From Cenococcum geophilum (lineage: Eukaryota): 64,000 bases of DNA. Below the pieces are notes generated by a model. It worked only from the letters and a program-made list of their open reading frames with translations. It had not been told where the DNA came from and searched no databases. The DNA is taken from NCBI GenBank assembly GCA_050273025.1, contig CP158635.1:11036001-11100000 (forward strand), in the 5' to 3' direction. A program made the position numbers and the translations under genes. Position 1 is the first letter of the stretch; each line of letters opens with the position of its first letter. Of this stretch, positions 1 through 62,700 are shown piece by piece.

Positions 1-3000
1 ATATTGTTAAGGCATACTATAATAAACTCATTAAGGTATTCTTCTAATACACTATTAATTCTTTTCTAAAATGTTATAGGTATATTTATTAGCCTAAATT
101 ATATAACTAATAGCTTATATAGTCCTTCTCTTAACCTAAAGGCTACCTTCTATTTATTACCTTCCTTAATTTTAATTTAATGGTACGCCTATCTTAGATC
201 TATCTTTATAAAGATTTGCGCGTTACCTATCTAATCTTAGATTTCGCTAATTAAGGGTAAAGGATACCTATCTTTCCGAGTAATGCTATTTAACTATCTA
301 TAGTTAATATATAGCCTAAGTTTTCTATTCTTTTTTAGTACGAATAATACTGGGTAACCTATTAATAACTATAATAGTCTAATATATCCCTTTTACAGGT
401 TCTCTTAGATAAACTCTTTAAGTACTCTAGACTCCTCTTAAGTAAGCTTATAGGTTAGAAAAAACCTTAGATTTATTCCTAGTTTTAACTCTATTTTATA
501 GTCCTATACTATATAATCTGCTAGCTTTTTACTTTCTAGGCTCTATAGTTTCTTACTATATTTATAGTATCTCTTTAGTACGTAACTTAAGCCTTACTTA
601 GTCTCTTTATATATTACTCTAACTTAGTATTATACTAACTTAGTTTACTATTATATTTTATATTATTAAGTATCTTTAATATTAACCTAACCTATAATCT
701 AATTAATCCTTAGGTTATATTCCTGTAACTAAGGTATACCTAATACTACCTTATCCTGTCCTAATAGTAGGATATTAAAAGACATCTTAATTTATCTTCC
801 TTTAATAGTTATCTAAATAGGTCCTTTTTTAAGATTAATAATCCCTCCTTTATAGGTTATTAGATCTCCTAAAATTGTAACTAATAGGTAAAGTTATTCC
901 TTCTATTTATAAGGTAATCCTATTTCTTTACTGCTATTAATAAAATATAGTTCCGTGTTACTCCACTATCTATTAGCGCTTTAAACTACTAATCTTACTA
1001 TTTAATCCTTAAATTTAGGTACTATCCTTAAATTCCTTTAAGGGTTTAAGGCTCTACTACTAGTTCCCTCTAGTCCTATAGGCCTTTACTTTTCCCAACT
1101 ATTAGCTGTTTAATCTTTATATACTTAGCTCGTTCTTTAACCAGTACTTAGTTTGCTTTTTATCTTCTATATACTATAGATATATATTCTTTAGGTATTC
1201 CTACTACTATTATTTATCTAAGTATTCTTCCGTAAAAAATCTTCCTAGTTAAAGTATTAGATCCCCAAACTCTTAGATCTCTATTAGATACTAGCTATAT
1301 ATATACTTAGCATTTCTATACTATTGCTCTTCTAGCGCCTAATATATCTTTATAGGGTATTTCCAATTCTTTTCTTTTAGATTTTTATGCATTTTATATA
1401 TATTGTCTATATATATAATCCATAATAGCGTATAATGTGCTAAGTGCTTTAGGTTAACTCTTAACTCGTCTTTATCTTTAAGTTTAAACCTCTATTATGT
1501 TAATCTAAACGTTATAACTTTATTTATAGGTACTAATATACACTTCTTACTTCTCTAGTCCTCTAATTATTCCTCTAAATTCTTTAACGTTATAATTAAG
1601 GCTCCTTTAATATAAGTTATGGCCTTCTCTATAATAGGGTAGTCCTAAATAACTTATTTATCCAACTACATATAAAAATCTTTTTATTTATTATTATGTC
1701 GTTACCTATACCACTTTTAGTACAGCTATTAGAGTATATATAGCTTATCTACAAGGAAGTATCTTCTTATTACTATATTATAACAGCCCTTTATATATCG
1801 TTTTTTAAACCTAGTAAGGATCCCTAGATCCTCTTTATTTTCCAGTTTAGTAAGCTACTTAGCTCTTAATATGCCTACTCTAAGCCTATTAGTAATTTTT
1901 TATATAGGTGCCCTATCCCTTATATAACCTAGTATACTAAATCTCTTATTTAGTTTCTATTCATGCTATACAATAATTCTTTACCTAAATTCTTCTATAG
2001 TTTCTTTTAGTTTAAGTCTTATAGATAGATCCTTAAAGTTATCCTGCTTCTTAATCTTAGTATTAATATTTTAATCCTCTTACTAAGCCTTACTCGCAAT
2101 TTCTTTAATAGTCCTTATTCTATTGCTAAAATCTTAGTCCTATAAGATTCTTAATCCTAAGCTTGCTTCCGTCTTAAGCTTTAATCCTATCTTAGTTTAA
2201 CTAGACTTTTGTGGTGTTCTTATCTCGTTTTAAGAGTCTTAAATCTCACTTATCTCGTCTTGAGAGTCTTATATTTTTAGGAAACTTCGTCCTAAGCTTA
2301 TTTATATATTACTAAACTGAGCCGTTACTCTACTCTATCGGTTATCGTCTATTATAGGTCCTTAAGCTTACTTTATCTTATCTTAAGAGTTTTAGTTATC
2401 TTATATCTCGTCTTAAGAATCTTAAGCCTTTGGCCTTTTGCCTTTATTAAGTGCCGAAGTAGTTTACTATCCTACTTCTCTTGCGTCTTATAAAGCAATA
2501 GATATTGTATCTAGTAGGGTCTTAATCCCTACTAATATTCCCTGTTCTATAGTGGAATTATCCTCTACCTCTTATATAATATCTCTAAGGTCTATATACT
2601 TTTAGTAAGCTGCCTTTATTACCTTATTATTACTAAATATTTCGCCTATATTAAATTTATTATCCTTAATGTCCGATTTACGAACTAGTTTATTAGTTCC
2701 TTTAAACTCTAATAATTTTAGCTCTTATGGCCAATAGCTTGCGCTATACTTAGCGTCTTTATAAATTTAGTATGCGTTATTATAATAGAACGCGAAACTT
2801 TTAATTAAACACTCTTTTGTTCCTTATAGTATATTATTATCCCTCTATATATATATATATATCGTCTACTAGTCTCGTTCCTTTTACTATATAGTAACTC
2901 TAACCACTCCTATAGTCTTTAACGTAATAACCCTATTTTTTGTAATTTATATAAACTCCTTCTTTAAACTATTTTTTTTATTATGGAGTCTGTCTAAATA

Positions 3001-3702
3001 TCTTCTGCTACTAAGATCCCTAGTTTAACCTCTGCTCCTTAGATCTTTAATTACTTAATCCTTATCCTCTAGGTTTCTATAATTTCTTATTTTACTTCTT
3101 AGATTCTTTAGTACTACTTAGGTCTATTAGCTCTGCGCTATACTATAGTTTTTAACTTTAACTTTATTAATGCGTATTCTGCGCCTTATATAACTATAAA
3201 ACTCTATCCTAACCCTTCTTAGTCTGCTCTCTTTAGTAGATCCTATTATTAATCTTAATTACTTAATTAATTAAATCTCTAAGAGTATCCGCATCTTCTA
3301 TTAGAATAATTACGTCCTAGACTTTTGCTTTAAGTCCCTACTTATACTGTGCCATAAGCGCTTTATTATTTTATTTGACCTATATTGCTAATATTTAAAA
3401 CTACGTTATATACTTAATTGCTAAAGTTCTTTATACTAGGTTTTAAAGCTTCCTTTTAGCCGTAGTAGTTACTTCTAGGTCCCTAAATATTTATATTAAT
3501 TATTCCATAAACCCGTTCTAACTTAAGAACATATACCGTACTTTTTGGTTAGTAGTTATTATGCCGTGCTCCTATACCTCCGTAAGGTAAGGTTTAAACT
3601 ACTTAAGTGCCCTTCCCGTTAAGAATAATCCTGCGTAAGCAACTTAATCCATAGGCGTTCCTAGCTTTACCCCTTCCTATATAACCTTAAAGTGCATTTA
3701 CG

Positions 3703-49936: not shown

Positions 49937-50393
49937 CAGCGATGTGCACGACCAGCTTCCACCCCCCTCTGGAAAAATATTATTTCGCTTCGGCATGCGA
50001 GCTCGCTAAATCGCCACCAACTGTATATAGTAATTGTAGCGAACGCATGTGCCTGCACGCAACAGTGGTTGCCCTGGAGAATCGCCTTGGTTGGCCAGGA
50101 GAAACGCACGCGCCCTCCCCTTCCCCTTAACTGGGCCCCCCTACTATGGCCGCCAAAACGCGAATACAAAGCTGTTCCTGCAATTGCCGATGAAATTTGG
50201 TGATATCGTACGGGTGAAAACCTTGTGTACGATATTTGACAAAGATCACGACACTGCGGAGGAAGGCCGATTGCGAAGTCTGCCAGAAGTAAAGTTCTTG
50301 CAGCCAAGCATGGGCGTTCGCTATGATTGCTAGCGAGCCCGCGTACCGAAGCGAAATAATATTTTTCCAGAGGGGTGGTCGTGCACATCGCTG
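49937..50393. mobile_element. Tc1/mariner-type MITE, 457 bp, essentially un-RIP'd
   Basis: TIRs CAGCGATGTGCACGACCA..CCCCTCTGGAAAAATATTATTTCGCTTCGG (~63 bp, with an indel). TA TSD at 49935-36 and 50394-95. Confidence 0.92.
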
Positions 50394-50547
50394 TAGATTA
50401 AAATAGGTAAGAATTAAAGCAGTTATAAAATAATATTTTAGGTCGTTAAAAGCTTATTTATATTTAGTAGTCTATTTAAATCTTATCCCTTGCATAGATG
50501 GTGTAGATGCGACTATAGCCCGTGCACGACGTTAAAGAATATCAATA

Positions 50548-51923
50548 CAAGGGGGCCTCATGAGCGGGCTGCTCGCCCTCCCTGCTAGCGCTGGCGTGGC
50601 TTTAGCTATATGCAGCGTATGAATAATCCACAGAAGCCACCAGAATACACCAGACTAGCTAGATAACATATAAAACAACGGCAGGGGGGCCTTGTATCTT
50701 GTATCATAAAAATGCCGAATCTTGTACGCCGGTAGCGAGGCCACCATCCACCAAAAATCCAATACCCAATTCTTCGAGATCTAGGCACCCGTCTCTCTTA
50801 CCGTGAGCGTAATATTGCTTATTCCCTCTCTCAATACGCTAGTTGGAATCACCACAGGATTGGTGCCTCCCTTGGTATACCTTATAGAACTATATTAAAT
50901 TCTCTCCAGAATCCATAGACCCCTTAAAAGCAGAGGGGAAGGAAGCCGAATATTGATACCCTAGCACGACAGCGTCTAATTGCACGAGCGAAGCAGGACC
51001 GTTGGCACCGACAGAAATCCTTCGAGGAGATTGCATTTCTTGAAGGAATCTCTGCCTGCAAGCGATCTTTATATAAGGCCTTTGAAAAGGAGGGCTACTT
51101 CCGCCGCGTTGCAACAGAGAAGCCCCTTATTACGCCTAAACAACGAGAGGCCCGTCTTAAATGGGCCTATTCTCATCTAGAATGGACTCCCGAGATATGG
51201 GCAGCAGTAATTTGGACAGGTGAAGCGTCCGTTCGAACTGGTGGAGGCCAGATTTTTGTTACTAGAAGCGCCGAGGAGAAATACAATATTAATTGCTGTG
51301 TCCCCAAATTTAGGGGGTATTTAAGCTGGATAATCCACGGTAGTATTTCCCATGGGAATAAAGGACCTCTAGTTGTTTTTGAGAAGGACTAGTTAATTAA
51401 GCTGGGATACAAGAAAAAGACAATAAATGGCGACGTCTACTGTACCTATATATGCCCCAAAATTAAGACTTTTGCATGGGAATTATGGCAGACACTATAA
51501 CACCAGCCTATTCTTGTGGAGGATAATGCCTTAATTTACTCAGCAAAAGTAACGCGCCTTGGCTGGGAACAGAACGGCATGCTAGTAATGGAATGGCCAG
51601 CGAATTCCCCTGATTTGAATCCAATTGAGAACGTCTGGAGGCTATTAAAGGGGAGGATACAACGCCGGTTCCCTAAAACAAATGAGGAAGTACGGTAGTA
51701 CGCTAAGGAGGAATGGGAGAAGCTCGAACCTGAAGAATTTGAAAAGTATACAGGCAATATGAGGGAGCGCTGCTTGGCTGTAATTGCTGCAGATGGCGGC
51801 CCAACGAAATATTAGTTATTGGTTACTGAATAAGCACTGTTTTCATGTGGCGATGTGGCAATTGTAAGCACTAATGGAGGCGCTAGCAGGGAGGGCGAGC
51901 AGCCCGCTCATGAGGCCCCCTTG
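50548..51923 (+). mobile_element. Tc1-family (DD34E) transposon, 1376 bp
   Basis: Perfect 44-bp TIRs at 50548-50591 and 51880-51923. TA TSD at 50546-47 and 51924-25. Confidence 0.96.
50712..51815 (+). pseudogene. Tc1 transposase (367 codons) with about six premature stops
   Basis: One frame, including supplied ORF 51516-51698: EDNA..WPANSPDLNPIENVW (34 residues between D and E), ending DGGPTKY*. Confidence 0.93.
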
Positions 51924-54852
51924 TAGTATGTCCACGGTTCGATTTGTATGGCTAAATCAGCCACTAAGTCACGATTTGGCAGGCAGGAGGCCCGTGCGCT
52001 TAGCGGTATATAGATATTACCCCATGTCCACAGTCGATCTATAATTACTAGTAACGCCGCGCTCTTAACACCTATTAAGTGCTATGCGTAGAGCCGGCTA
52101 AGAGCTCTCTGCTCGCATTAGAATGGTAAGAATTAGCCGTAGGTTAATAGAGATATTTACGTTTTAGATTAGGCGCTGCTATTATATAAGTACTTTATTA
52201 AACTTATACTGCACTAAAATAAGCCCCTAAGGGGCTATAGATAAAGGCTTTAAGAGGACTCCTTAGAAGTTAGATATATATACTATTTTAAAGCTTTTTT
52301 ACCCGCTTAAAGCCGTTTATAAAGCTAATCTAGCGAGCACTATATCCGCTCCTGCTATTAATTAACCTACTATATAGCCGCTTCCTTACTAACCCTTTAG
52401 GCCTACGCAACCTACTTAATCTCCTTAATAACCTTAAGCTGTAGGGAGTACTATTGGAGCTTATTCTACTGGCTAGCCCGCTATTTACTGCCCTATTTAG
52501 AATCTAGCGCTACTATAGAAGGATTACCTCTAAGCCCTTTAGTCCACTCGCGCTAAAGGGCCCGTATAGACTTTACTGTATAGTATATATAATATGCTAG
52601 CGACTACTTAGGCGGCTGCTTGGGCTTAGGCCCTTACTACAGCTATAGCTATAGCTATAGCTATAGCGGCGCTAGCGAAGGGGAAGCTACAGCGCTTACC
52701 TAGGCCGATATATTCTAGTTTAATTCCGCGACAAATAGAGGCGCTAGTGGATATACCATTAGTAGACGTACCGTTAGGAGGTATGTTATTAAACGTAAAT
52801 ATATAGATGCTAAAGGGACCTTAAGCTAAAAGGTAAGGCTACCGGACGTAAGCAATTAAAGCTGCAAAGACTGCGCCTACTAGGACTCGGCTATACGGTT
52901 AAATAACGCCTATAGCTCGCGTATTTAGGCGTCTATAGTCTTTAGGCGGTTCGCGATAGCTAGTACAGCCTAGTAGAGTATTAATAGCTAGCTAGGGCCT
53001 TTTTCCTCCTACTATAGGCAGGCTTCGACCTTCTGCGCGAAGGGTAGATAGGCCTTATACTAGAAGACCAGGTGGTTTTATATAGGGCTACTTAGGAACA
53101 TCTTGCGAAGGACTACTAAGTCCTATAGGATAACCTCCTAGAGATAAAATAGGAGGTTTATAGCGCCTATAGCCGCGAGGTTATTAACCTAGCTAACCTA
53201 AGGGCTAAACTGGCCCTTCTAGATATCCAGCTCTGGCTAGATCGTCGACAGTAGTACATTAAGGGGGGCGACGCTTGCCCTGTAAATCTTAAAGCAGCCT
53301 ATCTATAGTAAATGGCCAGCTATTGTCCGTATAAACTCCCGCGGTAGTAAATTTAAGTAATAGCTAACTATTTACTTCTGGTTTTACCTACTAGCGCGTT
53401 TAATCTAGTCCTCGCTAACCCCTTTTAGCTCCGCTATTTTAGCGCTAGCGCTTTGCCTATTATAGGTCTTTTTCTATAAAAAGATGCCGATGGCCTAGAA
53501 TGCCTTAGCAATTTACTCCCGCTATAAGTTATATAAGAAGGCCGTCTTATAGTCCCTAGCGCTGCTTTTAATTAGGCGGATATTATACCACACTAACCGC
53601 TTGCTAAAGTTTAGAAATAGCTTATTATTAAGGTCCTAGTGGTATAAGAGGTAGAAAGCTAGCCCGCTAAGTATATAGATAAGCGGCTTCTTATTATATA
53701 GAGCTCTAATAGTCTTAAGGCGGCTATACTGGTTCTACTTACTGGCGCGTATAGTAAATATTAGGGGCATATAGCGCGTAGGACCTTTCCCCTTAAACTT
53801 AAAGGTAAATAGGTCTAAGATCTCGGCGGAGCGCCTATTGCTGCCGTAGGTAAGTATATAGTGGCCTAGTAGGATATCTATAAGCGTATGGAGGTAGTAT
53901 TTTGGTAAGGAGTCTCCGCGGGCCTATAGCTTATAGTAGACGCTCTTAAACTCGTCCTCTATATATCCGTTAAGTAGTATATTCCTACCCTTATTTATAA
54001 ACTACTTCTTTTCCTACTGCGCGTCCCTCTATTATAAAACCTTTAGGTAATCCCTAATATTATCCTCCTGTAGGAACTAGTGGCTATTTATCCCTATATC
54101 CTTTTACGTTCGGTAAAGGTCCGTTAGGGTAGTAATATAGCCGCGAACTAAGCGCTAGGAGAGCCGCGTCTCGTCCTAAGGTACGTTATTACTAGCCTTA
54201 CGGCTTTTTACTTTTAGTAGCTGGCCTATAACCTTCTTAATAAGGAAAAGAAGTAGCTTCTCTTCTATAATGGTATTGCTATTATAGTACTACTTCCGCT
54301 TATAAAAGGCCTAGAAAGACGCGCGTTAGTTATAAGTATATTACTTTATAAAGCACCTACCTATTTACCTTAAACTCTTTCTACTTCGGCTTATAATTTA
54401 AAGATATATTTTTAGGTCTCTTAAAACGCGTAAGGGTAAGGATACTCTGCGCATTAGCGCGTAGTTTGGCATTATTTACAACGTTAATCTTTACGCAACT
54501 AATTAATAGCATTTTTAAGATATATAGGACGCTGCTAGAGAAGCTATACCCTAAGGGGGGATTCCTATTTTCCTATATACGTAGATATAAACTAGGGAGG
54601 AAAGGTAGAGAGAGCATACCTACTAGATAAGTAATTTTACTATATAGGGTAAATAAACGGGCGTATGGCTGGGCCAATAGGCTAATAGTACGCGCGCATT
54701 AGCAACTTAATTAGTAGGGGTAAAGACATTTAAAGATATCCACGGCTTAGTTATAGGCTTAGCCATAGACATCCGCGAATATTAATAGGGGTTATATATA
54801 TTATATACGGCTTAGTAACTAATCGGGCGCTTAGCTAAGCCGTAAATACCAA
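51924..54852 (-). mobile_element. Crypton (tyrosine recombinase) element, copy 1 (2929 bp)
   Basis: Direct repeat of 54853-57781. Bounded by AATAYCAA direct repeats; its left end is interrupted by Tc1. Confidence 0.88.
52283..54512 (-). pseudogene. Crypton YR/NDC10-II-like protein with C-terminal GCR1_C-like domain, copy 1
   Basis: Same motifs as copy 2; intron at 54311-54368. Confidence 0.82.
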
Positions 54853-57781
54853 TAGTATATCCACGGTTTGATTTATATAGCTAAATTAGCCGCTAAGTCA
54901 CGATTTGGCAGGCAGGAGGCCCGTGCGCTCAGTGGCATATAAATATTACCCTATATTTACGGTTAATCTATAATTACTAGTAACGCCGCGCTCTTAATAC
55001 CTATTAAGCGCTATACGTAGAGCCGGCCAAGAGCTCTTTGCTCGTACTAGAATGGTAAAAATTGGCTATAAGTTAATAGAAATATTTATGTTTTAGATTA
55101 GGCGCTACTATTATATAAGTACCCTACTAAACTTATACCGCACTAAAATAAGCCCCTAAGGGGCTATAGATAAAGGCTTTAAAAGGACTCCTTAGAAGTT
55201 AGATATATATACTATTTTAAAGCTTTTCTATTTACTTAAAGCCGTTTATAAAGCTAATCTAGTAAACACTATATCTGCTTCTGCTGTTAATTAACCTACT
55301 ATATAGCCGCTTCCTTACTAACCCTTTAGGCCTACGCGACTTACCTAATCTCCTTAATAACCTTAAGCCGTAGGGAGTCCTATTAGAGCTCGTTCTACCG
55401 GCTAGCCCGCTATTTACTGCCCTATTTAGAATCTAGCGCTACTATAAAAGGATTACCTCTAAGCCCTTTAATCTACTCGCGCCAAAGGGCCCGTATAAAC
55501 TTTACTATATAGTATATATAATATATAGGCGGCTACTTAGGCGGCTGCTCGGGCTTAGGCCCTTACTGCGGCTATAGCTATAGCTATAGCTACGGCGGCG
55601 CTAGTAAAGGGGAAGCTATAGCGCTTACCTAGGCCGATATATCCTAGCTTAATTCCGTAATAAATAAAGGCGCTAGTAAACGTGCCGTTAGTAAACGTGC
55701 CGTTAGTAGGTATACTATTAGATATAAATATACAGATACTAAAGGGACCTTAAGCCGAAAGGTAAGGCTACTAAACGTAAGTAATTAAAGCTATAAAGAC
55801 TGCGCCTACTAGGACTTGGCTATACGGTTAAACGACACCTATAGCTCGCGTGCTTAGGCGTCTATAGTCTTTAGGCGGTTCGCAATAGCTAGTACAGCCT
55901 AGTAGAGTATTAATAGCTAGCTAGGGCCTTCTTCCTTCTATTATAAGTAGGCTTCAACCTTCTGTATAAAGGGTAGATAGGCCTTATACTAGAAGACCAG
56001 GTAGTTATATATAGGGCTGCTTAGAAATATTTCGCGAAGGACTATTAAGTCCTATAGGATAACCTCCTAGAGATAAAACAGAAGGTTTATAGCGCTTATA
56101 GCTATAAGGTCGTTAACCTAGCTAACCTAAGGGCTAAACTGGCCCTTTTAGACGTCTAGCTCTGGCTAGATTGTCAACAGTAGTATATTAGGAGGGGCGA
56201 CGCTTGCCCTATAAATCTTAAAGCAGCCTATCTGCGGCGAATAGCCGGCCATTATCCGTATAAACTCCTATAGTAGTAAGTTTAAGTAATAGCCGACCAT
56301 TTACTCCTAGTTTTACCTACTAACGTATCTAATCTAGTCCTTACTAACCCCTTTTAGCTCCGCTATCTTAGCGCTAGCGCTTCGCCTAATATAGGTCTTC
56401 TTCTGCGAAAAGACGCTAACAGCCTAGAATGCCTTAGTAACTTACTCCCACTACGAGTTATATAAGAAGGCCGTCTTATAGTCCCCAGCGCTGCTCTTAA
56501 TTAGGTGGATATTATACTATACTAACCGCTTACTAAAGTCTAGGAATAGCTCGTTGCTAAAGTTCTAGTAGTATAAGAGGTAGAAAGCTAGCCCGCTAAG
56601 TATATAAATAAGCGGCTTCTTATTATGTAGAGCTCTAATAGTTTTAAGGCGGCTATACTAGTTCTACTTACTGGCACGTATAGTAAATATTAGGGGCATA
56701 TAGCGCGTAGGACCTTTCCCCTTAAACTTAAAGGTAAATAGGTCTAAGATCTCGGCGGAGTACCTATTGCCGCTATAGGTAAGTATATAGTGGCCTAGTA
56801 GGATATCTATAAGCGTGCGGAGGTAGTATTTTAGTAAGGAGTTTTTATAGGCCTATAGCTTGCGGCAGACGCTCTTAAACTCGTCCTCTATATATCCGTC
56901 GAGTAGTATATCTCTACCCTTATTTATAAACTGCTTCTTTTTCTACTGCGCGTCCCTCCGTTATAGAACCTTTAAGTAATCCCTAATATTATCCTCCTAT
57001 AGGGACTAGTGGCTATTTATCTCTATACCCTTCTGCGTCCGGTAAAGGTCTATTAGGGTAGTAATATAGCTATAAACTAAGCACTAGGAGAGCCGCGTCT
57101 TGTCCTAGAGCACGTCGTCACTAGCCTTACGGCTTTTTACTTTTAGTAGCTGGCCTATAACCTCCTTAATAAGGAAAAGAAGTAGCTTCTTTTCCGTAAC
57201 GGTATTGCTGTTATAGTACTGCTTCCGCTTACAAAAGGCCTAGGAAGACGCGCGTTAGTTATAAGTATACTACTCCGTAAAGTACCTACCTACTTACCTT
57301 AAACTCTTTCTGCTTTGGCTTATAATTTAGAGACGTGTTTTTAGGTTTTTTGGAACGCGTAAGGGTAAGGATACTCTGCGTATTAGCGCGTAGTTCGGCA
57401 TTATTTATAACGTTAATCTTTACGCGACTAATTAACGGCATTTTTAAGATATGTAGGACGCTGCTAGAGAAGCTACACCCTAAGGGGGGATTCCTATTTT
57501 CCTATATACGCAGATATAGACTGGGGAAAAGAGGTAGAGAAAGCATACCTACCGGATAAGTAATCTTACCGCATAGGGTAAATAAACGGGCGCACGGCTG
57601 GGCCAATAGGCCAATAGTACGCGCGCATCAGCGACTTAATTAGTAGGGGTAAAGACATTTAAAGATGTCCACGGCTTAGCTATAGGCTCGACTATAGATA
57701 TCCGCGAATGTTAATGGGGGTTGTATATATTATATACGGCTCAGCGACTAATCGGGCGCTTAGCCGAGCCGTAAATACCAA
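54853..57781 (-). mobile_element. Crypton element, copy 2 (2929 bp)
   Basis: Head-to-tail with copy 1; same 2929-bp offset at every landmark checked. Confidence 0.88.
55212..57441 (-). pseudogene. Crypton YR/NDC10-II-like protein with GCR1_C-like domain, copy 2
   Basis: De-RIP RGGNRRSAEISDLF..GEGPTRCMPL..KQNQ; KTHIGR..DQIRRAGRW..GCYL (HxxR, W, Y); LWREWTEGL..LDSKWG. Intron 57240-57297 with GTAAGT..ACTAAC..TAG. In-frame upstream ATG at 57546. Confidence 0.82.
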
Positions 57782-57835
57782 CTTCTTTAACACTAATGTA
57801 AACAATTAACTTTATTAATTGGATAAACCACTATA

Positions 57836-59796
57836 ATGGTCCGAAATCGTGCATCTAATGACGAGGACTTTGTTCCACCTACCTAATATCTTAAACTGCC
57901 GCGTTAAATAAAGAAAAAACGACCACCAGAGCCCAAACCAGCGCCTCCTTTTGATCCTCTCCCTATCCTTAATAAAAACACCTATAGCACCCCCAATCTT
58001 CCTTCCCACATCGACCCTAGCAATCCCTATTAAATATTTAAGCTATTTTAGACGGATAAGTTGCTAAATTAGCTTATAGAGTATATAAATAGGAACGTAG
58101 AGCTAAACCTAATATCCAAAGAGAAGAAATAAAAGAACTGTTTAAGGCTATAGAAACTAATATATAGGCTTAAGCTTCATATATACTTAGCAGTGCTTAT
58201 TTATATAGGCTTGTATATAGAACTAACCATTAAGGATTACTAGCACGAAGACTTTAGCCATAGAATGATATATATTGTTAGATAGTATATTTTATGCGAC
58301 CGGTAGCAGCAAATTAATTGCTATTTTTACTACACTAAACTAAGAAAATAAGACGATAAGGTCTTCTAAAATACCTTTAAGAGGATATAGGACCTTAGTA
58401 AGTCCCTCCGCCTTTATTGCCGGAAGTTTTATTAGCTAGGAATTAACCTTACTGTTAATAAGACGATTAAGCGCTTTACTGGCCGCGTATTTAAAATTGT
58501 TAATATTCTAACTAAGCCAATACTAGAAGGCTTTAAGATATAGGTATTAGGCAATTAGGGCTACATACTTAACTAGATATTTTACTTAAAAGGCAATAAG
58601 GGAGGCCTATATAATTTAGACCTATTCTAGTGTAAAAAGGAAGGCTTTTCAAAGACGCAGGCAGTTATACTTAATTTTCTTACCTAGCGAGACAATAGCA
58701 CCGGCGAACTCCTTTACCCACTAAACATGCACATAGTTTGGCTCGATAACCTCTTTATATCTATCTATCTTCTTTAGAGACTCTATAAGCTTGGAATTGG
58801 CGCTATAGGAACGGTTAGGATAACTAGAACAAAGCGTAGAAAACAAGAGGATTTAAGTAAGGAAAAAGAGGTTAAGAATAAGAAAATAGCTTATCGCTAG
58901 TGGACCTTAAATTAATCTATAATAGCCAGATTTTATAGGGTACGCTATATACGGAGACTTTAGAGGATAGTACGGTAATGGAGTTTGCCTAGAAGGATGC
59001 TTAGTTGGTCCTATTTATAAGTACTATTACCAACGGTAAGTTAGTTCGATTTTAAAATATTAACACTATAGGCCTATACTAATAATGTTATACATCGCCA
59101 GTTTCTAAAAAAGTAAAACGGCTTCAAAAACGCCTAACTATAACGTCTACTGGCGCTATACAGACTCGGAAGGTGTTTGGCAACAAGGTAAGGAAGTAGT
59201 TATAGATTCTAGCGTTTATTAACTACTATAATCGCTTTATAAAAGGCGTTGATACCGCTAACTAGATAAAATCCTATTATACTTCCCTTAAGCGTCACCA
59301 GAAGACCTAGAAACCACTACTTCACTTCCTACTTAATACAGTTGTTACTAACTACTTTAAGCTATCCTTCTTCGCTAATTAAGGCTGGCCAAACAAGGCT
59401 GGCTATAAAGCCTTTATTAAACGCCTTGTTAACTCCCTCTTCCAAAACTTAATCCGCGTCGCTAAAATATATAAACCTTATATTCCTATAAGCCGAATCA
59501 AACGGTACCCGGTAGTGGAGCATGGATATAAACTAAAGAGGATAAATAGTAAAGTAGTTGCTTGCTTAGCATGCTTTAAGGTAAAAAAACGAGGTACGGT
59601 TAAGAGGCTATCGCAAAGGAAACCTCTAGTAGAGCTTTTTAATAATACAGTGCGGAAATTGCGCGATAATAGGAGTTAAAAGAGGCCTAAACAGGTGCCA
59701 AGAACTCAATTTAGCTATAGGCTCTATAAAATACCACTCTATAAAATAGGGTCGTGCTAGAAGACCTATATCAAGCAGGTTAACACTATAAATTAA
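57836..59796 (+). pseudogene. piggyBac-like transposase, RIP'd
   Basis: De-RIP VDETIERFTGR..IPTKPTPEGFKIW at ~58455-58545, VWLDNLF at ~58735, YNRFMKGVDTADQ at ~59227-59265, Cys-rich C-terminus. End approximate. Confidence 0.85.
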
Positions 59797-62700
59797 ATAT
59801 AGATAGGCCTTTTTAATGTATATTTAAAGCTTTAGGCAAATATTTGGTATATGGTAGAAAGCCTTACCAAAGCAATATAATTGGCTGAGCACGGGCCATA
59901 CTTTTAAGCACGGATCCATCTATACAAGGGATATTTTTCCTTATTAAGTTTACTAATAGCTAAACAATTTTTAAGAAGTAATTAATAAATTAATAATAGA
60001 AATTTGCAAATTTTAAAAATCCTTAAAAATCTTATATACTATTAGGACTTTCCTATTTTATAATTATAGCAATTTTTTTAGGATCTATTTTAATTTTATT
60101 ACGGGATATAATTAGGCCTAAGTATATAACTTTAAACGTATAGAACTTATATTTCTTAATATTATATTATAAGCCCGTGTCTTATAGGCGTTTAAGGACT
60201 ATTTAGATATACTTTTAATACTTAAAAAGTAAAGATAAATAAATTAAGATATTATTAATATACGCGGTAATAAATATATTAAGAAATTCACGAAGCTTAT
60301 TATTAACGTATTACTAAAACGTACTAGGACTATTTTTTATACTAAATAGTATAACTAGGTATTTAAAAAGTCCCTATTATATACGGAAAGCTATATACTT
60401 TTTATCTCCTTTATAAACACGGATTTAATTAAAGGCAGTAACTATATTAAGCTTTATAAAGTATTATACTTTTATTAAGTAGTTAAGCGTTTCTTAAAGT
60501 AGAGGAATTAGATATTAGTTTTAAATTATAATTATATTTAGGGCTTAATAATTAATATAAAACCTTAAGCCTCCTTTAGGTTTCTTAATAAATAGTATAG
60601 GTAAGGTAAATAGTAATTAACTAGGGCAAACAAATCCTTTCTCTAGGTGCTCTTTAAGGTATTATTATATTATAAGTAGCTCTTCTTATAATATACTATA
60701 TAATAGGCTAAACTTTAGCGTTATACTAGGTTTAAGTTCTATCTTAAAATTATACTTATCTTAATATAGGGGTAGTTAATCTATAAATTATTTCTTAAAC
60801 GTATTAATTAAATTATAATATTTTTTAGGTATAAGAGGTTAGGGGTTAATATATTACTTTAGTTCTAACGCCTTTATAACACCTTCTAGTATTATAGTAA
60901 AGATTTTATAGTTTTATTTTCTTACTAATAAATAAAAGGGTGCGGCTTATATTATATAAATTTTAAGGGGTTTTAATATATTATCTTTGCATTCTTTACC
61001 GCAATTAGCAGTTATAACTTTATTATATTAGTTTAAGATTTATAGTAAGGGTAATTTATATTATATTAAATTTAAATAGTTATATATATGTTTATAGAGC
61101 AAGTAATATTTTAAGTAATAACTTTAGTAGTAAGTTATACGGAATTTTAGTATTTCTTTAATCTAGCTAATTAAAGGGTCGTGTTATTTTAGCTATCTAT
61201 ATCTAAGTATTACCTTATAATGCTTTAAGGGTATTATAAATAGGGAAACGTATTTAAGGTATTTACCTATTTATATCTTTATAAGAGCGTAGTGCGTTAG
61301 TTCGCTATATATTAAAGGCTTACTATTAAAGCTTTATAGGCCTTAGGGCTTATTAAGTTTCTTTAAATTTAAGCGTTAAGTTTTTATATAGTTTATATTA
61401 ATAAAGCCTATACTAGTAGCTCCGCTATCTATAAAGATTTATACTTCCTTTTATTTTTTAAGTATTTAAATTTCACTAAGTATATTAAGGGAGTTATATT
61501 ATATATTATCGCTAAAAGAGCCTAAATACTTATACTCTTCCACTTTTTATTTTAAGGCGCGACTTAGCCCTAAAATAATTTATTTTCTAAATTAATTAAA
61601 AGTAAAATGCTTTATAGTAACTAAGTATAATTTATAGAATAAGTATAATTTAAGGATTAAGAGAAACTACAGTAGACCTTTTTAAAAGGGTAAGTTTAGC
61701 AATTCCTTTAAATATATCCCTTTTTACCGCATTTAAAGCATTCTCTATTTATAGCTTAAGTTCTTTATTTATTAGTTCCTAAGGGTATAAAGAATTAGGT
61801 GGTATTAAGGTCTATAGGGTTATATATAGGGCTTTTAGGTCTTAAAAACGGATCGCGCTTTAGGGTATATATTAGTTTCGTAAAGTTTTAAATATAAAGT
61901 ATAGTTAGCTTTAGAGAATAAGTCTGCTTATTATATTAGAGGTCTTTATTAATTCGTTAATATATTATAGCAAATTTAGGTAAGTCTTTTAGTAAATCCC
62001 TACCTACTAACTAGGCTCTAATTTTGTCTAAAATAGCTTAATAAAAAGCGGTAACTTTAGCGGCTTTATTCTAATCTAGCTTGCTAATAAGGCCTAAAAA
62101 TTCCAAACAGAAGCTAGTAAAGTCTTAGTTCCGTTATTATAGGTTTTTAAGTTTAGTAATCGCTATATATTCGTGGCTAGCGTTATTATATATTTATTCT
62201 AGCAGAGAGATAAGGGTTTTAAAATTAATAAAAGTGCCGTTATAAAAGAATAGGTCTATAGTTTATATAGCGTCTTTACTTAAATAAGATATTCTATAGT
62301 TAATCTTGCTAGCTTTAGTAAGGTATTAGTTATAGTTTATTAAAAGTTTAAGATAAAGCTTAGTTATAAAGGGATATAGGTTATTTTAATTTCTATTAAA
62401 CATTAGAGGGTTAGGGAGCTTTTTAGATTTTATAGTAGGTATTAAGTTCGTTATAAGTATAAGTTAAGCTACTATTACTAGTTTAGGGTTCGTATTTAAT
62501 AGGCCGGGTTATATATAGTTATTTTAATTTCGTTTATAGGTGTTACTATTAGGGTTTTTAATATAAGTGCTTTAAGGTTATAGAGTTCTTTATAGATTAC
62601 TCCTATTAATTACTAGTACTAAGCTTCTAATATCGCTTACTATTAGGCTAAAGCATCCGTAAAGAATTATTATATTATAGTTAACTATTCCCTAACCAGG

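Follow-up and report, generated by a model that had tools for sequence, protein, structure and literature searches.

Cryptons of the CryptonF group are defined by a tyrosine recombinase together with a GCR1_C domain (Kojima and Jurka 2011, PMC3212892), and the central part of Cbf2/Ndc10 is described in that paper as similar to the CryptonF recombinase domain. According to the accepted Crypton model (Goodwin 2003, cited in PMC3212892 and PMC9977147), integration takes place where donor and target share a short match; the model is backed by the de novo insertions and excisions reported for CryptonF-1_cRei (CACCG versus CAYCG; PMC9977147), whose rise in copy number is noted in the same report. 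For another member, CryptonF-2_CGlo, TTGRTA is listed as the terminal repeat (PMC3212892, Additional file 1). In the present work we analyzed a stretch of 64,000 nucleotides from Cenococcum geophilum (contig CP158635.1, positions 11,036,001 to 11,100,000; hereafter the window, whose own numbering is used throughout), in which two Crypton units lie head to tail within a piggyBac-like element. Both units are dead CryptonF copies and represent a previously unrecorded member of a known family, inserted by a known mechanism at a known core; the locus illustrates the accepted model and adds little that is new to it. The reading that we consider likely is that a CryptonF was inserted site-specifically at a short match, became a dimer, was degraded by repeat-induced point mutation (RIP) and was later interrupted by a Tc1 element, and that a perfect palindrome at the target is incidental.

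Unit 1 (51924..54852) and unit 2 (54853..57781), both on the minus strand and delimited by self-alignment and domain matches, can be aligned along their full 2,929 bp with no gap, at 88.8% identity. Twelve translated frames (six per unit), with stops read as X, were scanned for Pfam domains. NDC10_II, the tyrosine-recombinase-like domain of CryptonF, was found in one minus-strand frame of each unit (E 8e-42 and 3e-40), and the same frames contained GCR1_C (E 5e-9 in unit 1; E 6.5e-4 and 20.4 bits in unit 2, under the 23-bit Pfam cut-off); no domain match was obtained in the other 10 of the 12 frames. GCR1_C, the C-terminal DNA-binding domain of CryptonF, reaches E 1e-19 in the intact homologue P0001. 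The Crypton identity proposed in an initial annotation of the window, which had been made from the sequence alone, is thus upheld. A protein search returned 29 homologues, the best of which shares 65% identity with the mutated translation. The protein remnants (~52316-54280 in unit 1 and ~55245-57209 in unit 2) are collinear with intact homologues, without frameshift, and are interrupted by dozens of in-frame stops. Intact homologues retain RR, an H-x-x-R motif (KTHIGR) and GCY, the R-H-R-Y tetrad being assigned by motif pattern and not by structure. In the window the H of KTHIGR has changed to Y in both units and the R to Q in unit 1, and on these substitutions the copies are predicted to be inactive.

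An alignment of 17 homologues was used to scan metagenome contigs, and a total of 76 related loci were obtained. One of them, L003, aligns with the unit over its full length (82% identity), has both flanks and is itself degraded, with no open reading frame of at least 150 amino acids. Between the two units of the window, 322 of 327 differences are transitions and the TA/AT ratio is ~2.0. Relative to L003, changes in the RIP direction (C>T/G>A) make up 139 of the 149 private to unit 1, 149 of the 172 private to unit 2 and 274 of the 305 common to both. Among the 322 transitions, 137 fall in CpG and 93 in CpA/TpG; the CpA sites may have been exhausted in both copies, or the RIP context may be broader in this fungus. 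The coding sequence of the conserved VDILLGHY motif (GTGGAYATCCTGCTGGG; L006 at 3604, L070 at 1267 and other loci) was found to resemble the 3' terminal arm and core (GTGGAYATACTATTGG), which is probably a coincidence.

When window positions 50300-58100 were read, every coordinate given for the insertion in the initial annotation was found to be correct. The core AATA(T/C)CAA occurs at 50538-45 (with T), 54845-52 (C) and 57774-81 (C), as had been noted, and on the coding strand of the element it reads TTG(A/G)TATT (TTGRTATT). CryptonF elements lack terminal inverted repeats and carry direct terminal repeats of 4-8 bp that match the target. The window's Crypton conforms to this, having no inverted repeats and showing the 8-bp core, one mismatch aside, at either end and between the two units, in line with the earlier statement that a short direct repeat bounds the Crypton. 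This core is the TTGRTA of CryptonF-2_CGlo. Given the accepted model of integration, the site-match part of the earlier reading was right but not new. The terminal motifs, all on the minus strand, lie at 51924-51937 (3') and 54840-54852 (5', with core) in unit 1, and at 54853-54866 (3') and 57769-57781 (5', with core) in unit 2. The target-derived copy of the core (TTGATATT in Crypton orientation, position 4 being A; 50538..50545, minus strand) forms the Crypton 3' junction, and the head-to-tail junction of the units (54840..54866, minus strand) corresponds to the element-borne recombination site as it would be in a circle.

Twenty-nine 3' junctions (28 loci and the window) and 13 5' junctions (12 loci and the window) were placed by conserved terminal features. 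The tandem junctions of the window and of L064 were left out of both sets; L023, L050 and L056, whose 3' ends are off the common pattern, were excluded from the 3' set, in which L058 (TCA) and L020 (TTGGGG) were kept despite deviating from the consensus. The element 3' end reads ...GTGGAYAT(A/C)CT(A/G). At the 3' junctions, core positions 1 to 3 are T in 27, T in 28 and G in 28 of the 29, position 4 is variable (A20/C4/G4/T1), and positions 5 to 8 show T in 28, A14/G10/C5, T in 23 and C in 14. At the 5' junctions, position 1 is variable (T5/C3/A3/G2), TG follows in 12 of 13 (TA in the RIP-mutated L046), and positions 4 and 5 are G and T, respectively, in 13 of 13. Only T-T-G-n-T-r-T is common to both sets; no conservation was found in their flanks past core position 8, and the 12 bases upstream of the 5' junctions showed no pattern. 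The initial annotation had made the core and the flanking symmetry the features by which other insertion sites should be judged; across the related metagenome loci the core is shared but the symmetry is not.

The two kinds of junction differ in a systematic way. Position 4 is G in all 13 5' junctions versus 4 of the 29 3' junctions (Fisher 9e-8), and at position 1 the relation is reversed (Fisher 4e-4). This contrast indicates that the base at position 4 stems from the element at the 5' junction and from the target at the 3' junction, and the T/C difference among the core copies of the window follows from the same general rule, the target-side copy carrying the variant base. Junctions of this form are consistent with recombination in which the element contributes a junction site and the genome a target site, in agreement with the attP x attB-type integration suggested earlier. 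Within families, position 4 at the 3' junction varies among close relatives, being C in L013 and A in L015 (99.8% identity) and A in L008 and C in L053 (97.5%). Eight sites have both flanks. Position 4 is informative at 7 of them and is invariably G on the 5' side and A on the 3' side; position 1 is informative at 3, each time with the opposite relation. The patterns at positions 1 and 4 place the inherited exchange point in T2-G3, inside TTG. With a canonical staggered exchange over 6-8 bp and random segregation of the heteroduplex, both configurations are expected; the one-way configuration in 7 of 7 has a one-sided probability of 0.008 under random segregation. A short exchange region, directed repair, or a single-strand exchange resolved by replication may account for such a confined exchange.

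Several further features of the ends and flanks were noted. Many 3' flanks appeared to mirror the element arm (TTGATGTC versus GACAT), and this candidate was rejected on finding only positions 5-8 enriched; since these positions equal the element's own 5' end, they were read as an extended core preference and not as a second arm. The downstream flanks of L013 and L015, considered as hidden Crypton 5' ends, match nothing else. A palindromic motif, GCYGCTGAWTCAGCC (window 51950-51964 and 54879-54893; ~25 loci), is conserved among the CryptonF sub-lineages; it precedes the 3' terminal GTGGAYAT arm by 12-26 nt and is 26-40 nt away from the 3' end. There is a second, direct copy of the GTGGAYAT arm ~100 nt upstream of the terminal one, L046 and L006 end at this inner copy as if the intervening stretch had been deleted, and an inverted pair of the arm is present in the 5' region, ~75-125 nt from the end. 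The motif and the extra arms may be accessory binding sites. The 3' flank of L053 (1509-1641) opens with 1.9 copies of a ~70-bp repeat, each containing a stretch resembling the Crypton 3' terminus (AACCGTGGTCTACTTATTGG), and 4.9 copies follow in inverted orientation ~1.3 kb further on (2860-3201); these could be subterminal repeats of another element, or a mimic of the target.

Removal of the Tc1 and of both 2,929-bp units joins GTTAAAGAATATCAA (50531-50545) to CTTCTTTAAC (57782-57791). The rejoined site contains perfect 9-bp inverted arms, GTTAAAGAA and TTCTTTAAC, around the 7-bp spacer TATCAAC, exactly as first described; the left arm occupies 50531..50539, and the last spacer base (C) with the right arm occupies 57782..57791. 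Empty sites were rebuilt for all eight insertions with both flanks, and the best 9-bp inverted arms were scored with spacers of 3-11 and the axis within 6 nt of TG. The window scored 9 of 9 with a spacer of 7, L003 scored 7, L006, L046 and L007 scored 6, and L008, L002 and L011 scored 5. The null distribution from 56 mismatched flank pairs was 8 pairs at 4, 24 at 5, 20 at 6, 3 at 7 and 1 at 8. The loxP-like recognition arms of the initial annotation therefore find no counterpart at the seven other sites, whose scores (5-7) resemble those of the mismatched controls and whose flanks are unconserved past the core. No resemblance exists between the window arms and the element's terminal motif (CCGTGGAYA), and their dyad axis, at +0.5 from the G of TTG, is 3 bp from that of the element junction (-2.5). 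In size, the 7-bp spacer agrees with loxP/FRT-type sites (6-8 bp), and the 9-bp arms fall short of the 11-13 bp given for such sites in PMC3212892. The element's own junction, said earlier to be quasi-symmetric, does score 7 of 9 in the window, but 56 of 500 shuffles equal this, so that the symmetry is not above chance by itself; in L003 it scores 8 of 9 (7 of 500 shuffles). A general palindromic element junction was rejected, 7 of 9 junctions being not above shuffles and the symmetry being clear only in L003 and marginal in the window. Specific targeting of piggyBac had also been suggested, and shows no sign here, since none of the 76 loci has a match to this piggyBac (blastn, tblastn). We conclude that the 9-7-9 palindrome is probably a feature of the leader of this piggyBac, where a good TTGATAT core happens to lie, and not a recognition element of the recombinase. 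Among the paper titles listed in a literature search, none dealt with palindromic Crypton targets or with Crypton tandem arrays, which is not proof of absence.

The following observations weigh against the reading that we prefer. None of 2,000 composition shuffles of the flanks of the window site reached 9 of 9; the window minus the insert contains 22 such palindromes in 56.8 kb, and of its 261 TTGNT sites a single one, the site used, has such a palindrome no more than 6 nt away; L003, the closest relative with both flanks and a member of the same sub-lineage, scores 7 of 9 and shares the offset of the dyad axis (+0.5). The 5' boundaries of L002, L007 and L011 are based on a profile match and the xTGGTA motif and not on several copies, and the both-flank comparison covers 8 sites only, from several sub-lineages, the others lying outside the window's own genome. 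Finally, no circular or terminally redundant contig was found among the 76 loci, so the circle itself was not observed. The palindrome is beyond what chance would readily give (~0.4% for a single test), but it was spotted post hoc.

These points give some room to a functional palindrome, according to which a sub-lineage with a dyad-symmetric junction prefers dyad-symmetric targets, and, in the manner of Cre at loxP, strands are exchanged in the spacer by a recombinase dimer bound to the arms or to their structure. The full arms of the window, the target and junction scores of L003 and the palindromic target context reported for the tyrosine-recombinase element Enterprise (PMC8092012) speak for it; the unrelated arm sequence, the axes out of register, the null-level scores (5-6) of 6 of the 7 other both-flank sites and the lack of symmetry in most element junctions speak against it. 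The score of L003, moreover, is reached or exceeded by 4 of the 56 mismatched pairs, and its scoring flank is a low-complexity, TTGATA-like simple repeat. We hold this explanation, and a functional reading in general, to be unlikely; the variant in which the sub-lineage, whose own joined ends form an 8-of-9 inverted repeat, would pick dyad-symmetric, cruciform-prone targets by shape and not by arm sequence, the palindrome then serving as an attB-like site, seems a shade more doubtful still. As a target, the palindrome is a true peculiarity of this single site. A quite different proposal takes the arms as the ends of a larger composite element, or of a TTAA-type (piggyBac-like) insertion with the Crypton as passenger. 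TTAA does occur within each arm, but no target duplication is found outside the arms, the core marks the precise end of the repeat unit, of which two stand head to tail, and related elements share the same conserved termini in unrelated flanks; the junction comparison contradicts this proposal, which was rejected and which we regard as highly improbable.

The dimer raises a question of its own. The junction between the units is exactly 3' end, core and 5' end, with the element-type G at position 4, and a second head-to-tail array was found in L064 (2227-7355), where a 5'-truncated copy is followed by a full copy at 93.4% identity, the differences being mostly transitions and the RIP indices high. 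Head-to-tail arrays of this kind fit a circle integrating into the junction of a resident copy. Alternatively, the dimer might be a local tandem duplication of a single copy, by unequal exchange or replication slippage on the 8-bp core, without site-specific integration. The core on both sides of the unit could seed unequal exchange, and the missing circular form among the 76 loci is compatible with such an origin. The precise end-to-end junction with its element-type core and the independent array of L064, in another sub-lineage, argue against duplication, and 8 bp is very short for homologous unequal exchange; we consider it improbable. Integration of a circle, homologous recombination with a circle and unequal exchange all lead to the same sequence, which is therefore undecisive between these routes.

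Returning to site-specific insertion with an incidental palindrome, the history of the locus may be pictured as follows, the anatomy, the domains, the shared core and the crossover position being observed, and the circle, the route to the dimer and the order of events being inferred. A 2.93-kb CryptonF (NDC10_II and GCR1_C) would have integrated 59 bp inside the piggyBac-like element by conservative site-specific recombination, the donor partner being the joined ends of an excised circle (...GTGGAYATACTA-TTGGTR-TTCACGG...) and the target partner offering a short match only (TTG-A-T-A-T). Exchange would have taken place within TTG, leaving to its right element-derived bases at the 5' junction and target-derived bases at the 3' junction. 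The dimer would then have arisen by entry of a second circle (or of a dimeric circle) into the resident junction, or by homologous recombination of a circle with the resident copy. RIP would have struck the duplicated DNA and killed both recombinase genes, and the Tc1 would have landed last, at a TA of the left junction. On a further and unlikely reading, prompted by the confinement of the inherited exchange point to TTG, a CryptonF recombinase would swap a single pair of strands and resolution would fall to replication, which would also explain the tandem copies and the gain in copy number.

The surroundings form a well-resolved nested-transposon locus with the order Gypsy > piggyBac > Crypton dimer > Tc1. 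On the plus strand, from left to right, it comprises the piggyBac 5' end, whose GTTAAAGAATATCAA runs to 50545, the Tc1, the two Crypton units, CTTCTTTAAC and the remaining piggyBac sequence as far as 59930. The 5' end of the piggyBac-like element (50487..50545, plus strand) consists of the terminal inverted repeat CCCTTGCATAGATGG, mirrored at 59916-59930 with 1 transition, and the 5' leader up to the Crypton insertion point. Its remainder (57782..59930, plus strand) carries a RIP-degraded transposase in which two frames match DDE_Tnp_1_7 (E 1.3e-15 and 1.6e-3), and the 3' terminal repeat ends at 59930. Both the DDE_Tnp_1_7 transposase and the CCC...GGG terminal inverted repeats are features of the class; the flanks (50483-50486 and 59931-59934) read TTAT and ATAT and are not a TTAA target duplication, possibly because of mutation after insertion. 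The piggyBac breaks a Gypsy-type pol on the minus strand, leaving RNase H and integrase remnants on the left and the reverse transcriptase on the right. Contigs of at least four public runs, among the joints listed, skip from 50484-6 to 59931-41 and represent Gypsy copies without the piggyBac, which rejoin with a 2-base ambiguity. Also within the Gypsy pol, a TA-flanked element of 461 bp was noted at 49937-50397, with 74-bp inverted ends of 84% complementarity; its GC content is high and it seems to have escaped RIP. Gypsy copies that lack it are represented by contigs jumping from 49933/4 to 50394/5 in at least runs X1 and X3, and for the 49934>50395 variant in X5 and X6 as well.

The Tc1/mariner element, together with one copy of its TA duplication, occupies 50546..51923 (plus strand). 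Its 46-bp perfect inverted ends, including the TA duplication (50546-51925), and its DDE_3 (E 1.9e-10) and HTH_Tnp_Tc3_2 (E 1.5e-7) matches are those of the class, and it was inserted later, at the TA of the ACTA with which the Crypton ends on its 3' side. Its composition, unlike that of the surrounding DNA, does not bear the mark of RIP (TA/AT 1.00 versus ~2.0 in the Crypton), yet it contains in-frame stops. About 14% of the query's sampled words, equal to the length fraction of the Tc1, were present in many other runs (X6-X20), including root and soil metagenomes, and this sharing may reflect a widespread and recently active Tc1 family. No further copies of the Crypton, the Tc1 or the piggyBac were found within the 64-kb window. 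Summed word depth over the Crypton was 10-30x that over the piggyBac or the Tc1, depth not being a copy number.

The comparison of junctions sharpens the description of CryptonF ends, giving conserved asymmetric termini, the target preference T-T-G-n-T-r-T and two independent head-to-tail arrays. Wherever it can be judged, the exchange point falls within 2-3 bp, a confinement that, if it holds, is unusual for a tyrosine recombinase and could bear on how Cryptons gain copies, a question raised in PMC9977147. Now that donor junction and target are defined, an intact natural homologue could readily be put through a recombination assay.

Compared with described systems, the closest likeness is to the CryptonF group and to CryptonF-2_CGlo of Chaetomium globosum, which according to their published descriptions also combine a recombinase-like domain with GCR1_C, measure ~3 kb and lack terminal inverted repeats. 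The published terminal direct repeat TTGRTA of CryptonF-2_CGlo is identical to the window core, and the C. globosum protein CHGG_10966 shares 47% identity with the window's mutated translation; unlike CryptonF-2_CGlo, the window copies form a head-to-tail dimer, are heavily RIP-mutated and are nested in a piggyBac. CryptonF-1_cRei of Chlamydomonas, as reported by Lopez-Cortegano et al. (2023, PMC9977147), similarly pairs a terminus, CACCG, with a near-identical target, CAYCG, the degenerate middle base being comparable to TTGGT/TTGNT, and both its insertion and its clean excision have been observed, but its core and host are different and it is an active element, whereas the window holds dead copies. 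Enterprise (Vogan et al. 2021, PMC8092012), a Starship, is, like the window's Crypton, a fungal tyrosine-recombinase element with a short flanking repeat and a partly palindromic target; in that account it differs in belonging to the DUF3435 recombinase family, in being a giant cargo element and in having a palindrome that recurs at several insertions. The Crypton resembles Cre/loxP and Flp/FRT in that its enzyme is of the tyrosine-recombinase type, exchange is conservative and the site on the element has, in this sub-lineage, inverted arms, though imperfect ones. Unlike in those systems, the two partner sites of the Crypton differ, the target arms are unrelated to the element arms, site identity amounts to ~7 bp with a tolerated mismatch, and exchange falls within 2-3 bp and not across a 6-8 bp spacer.

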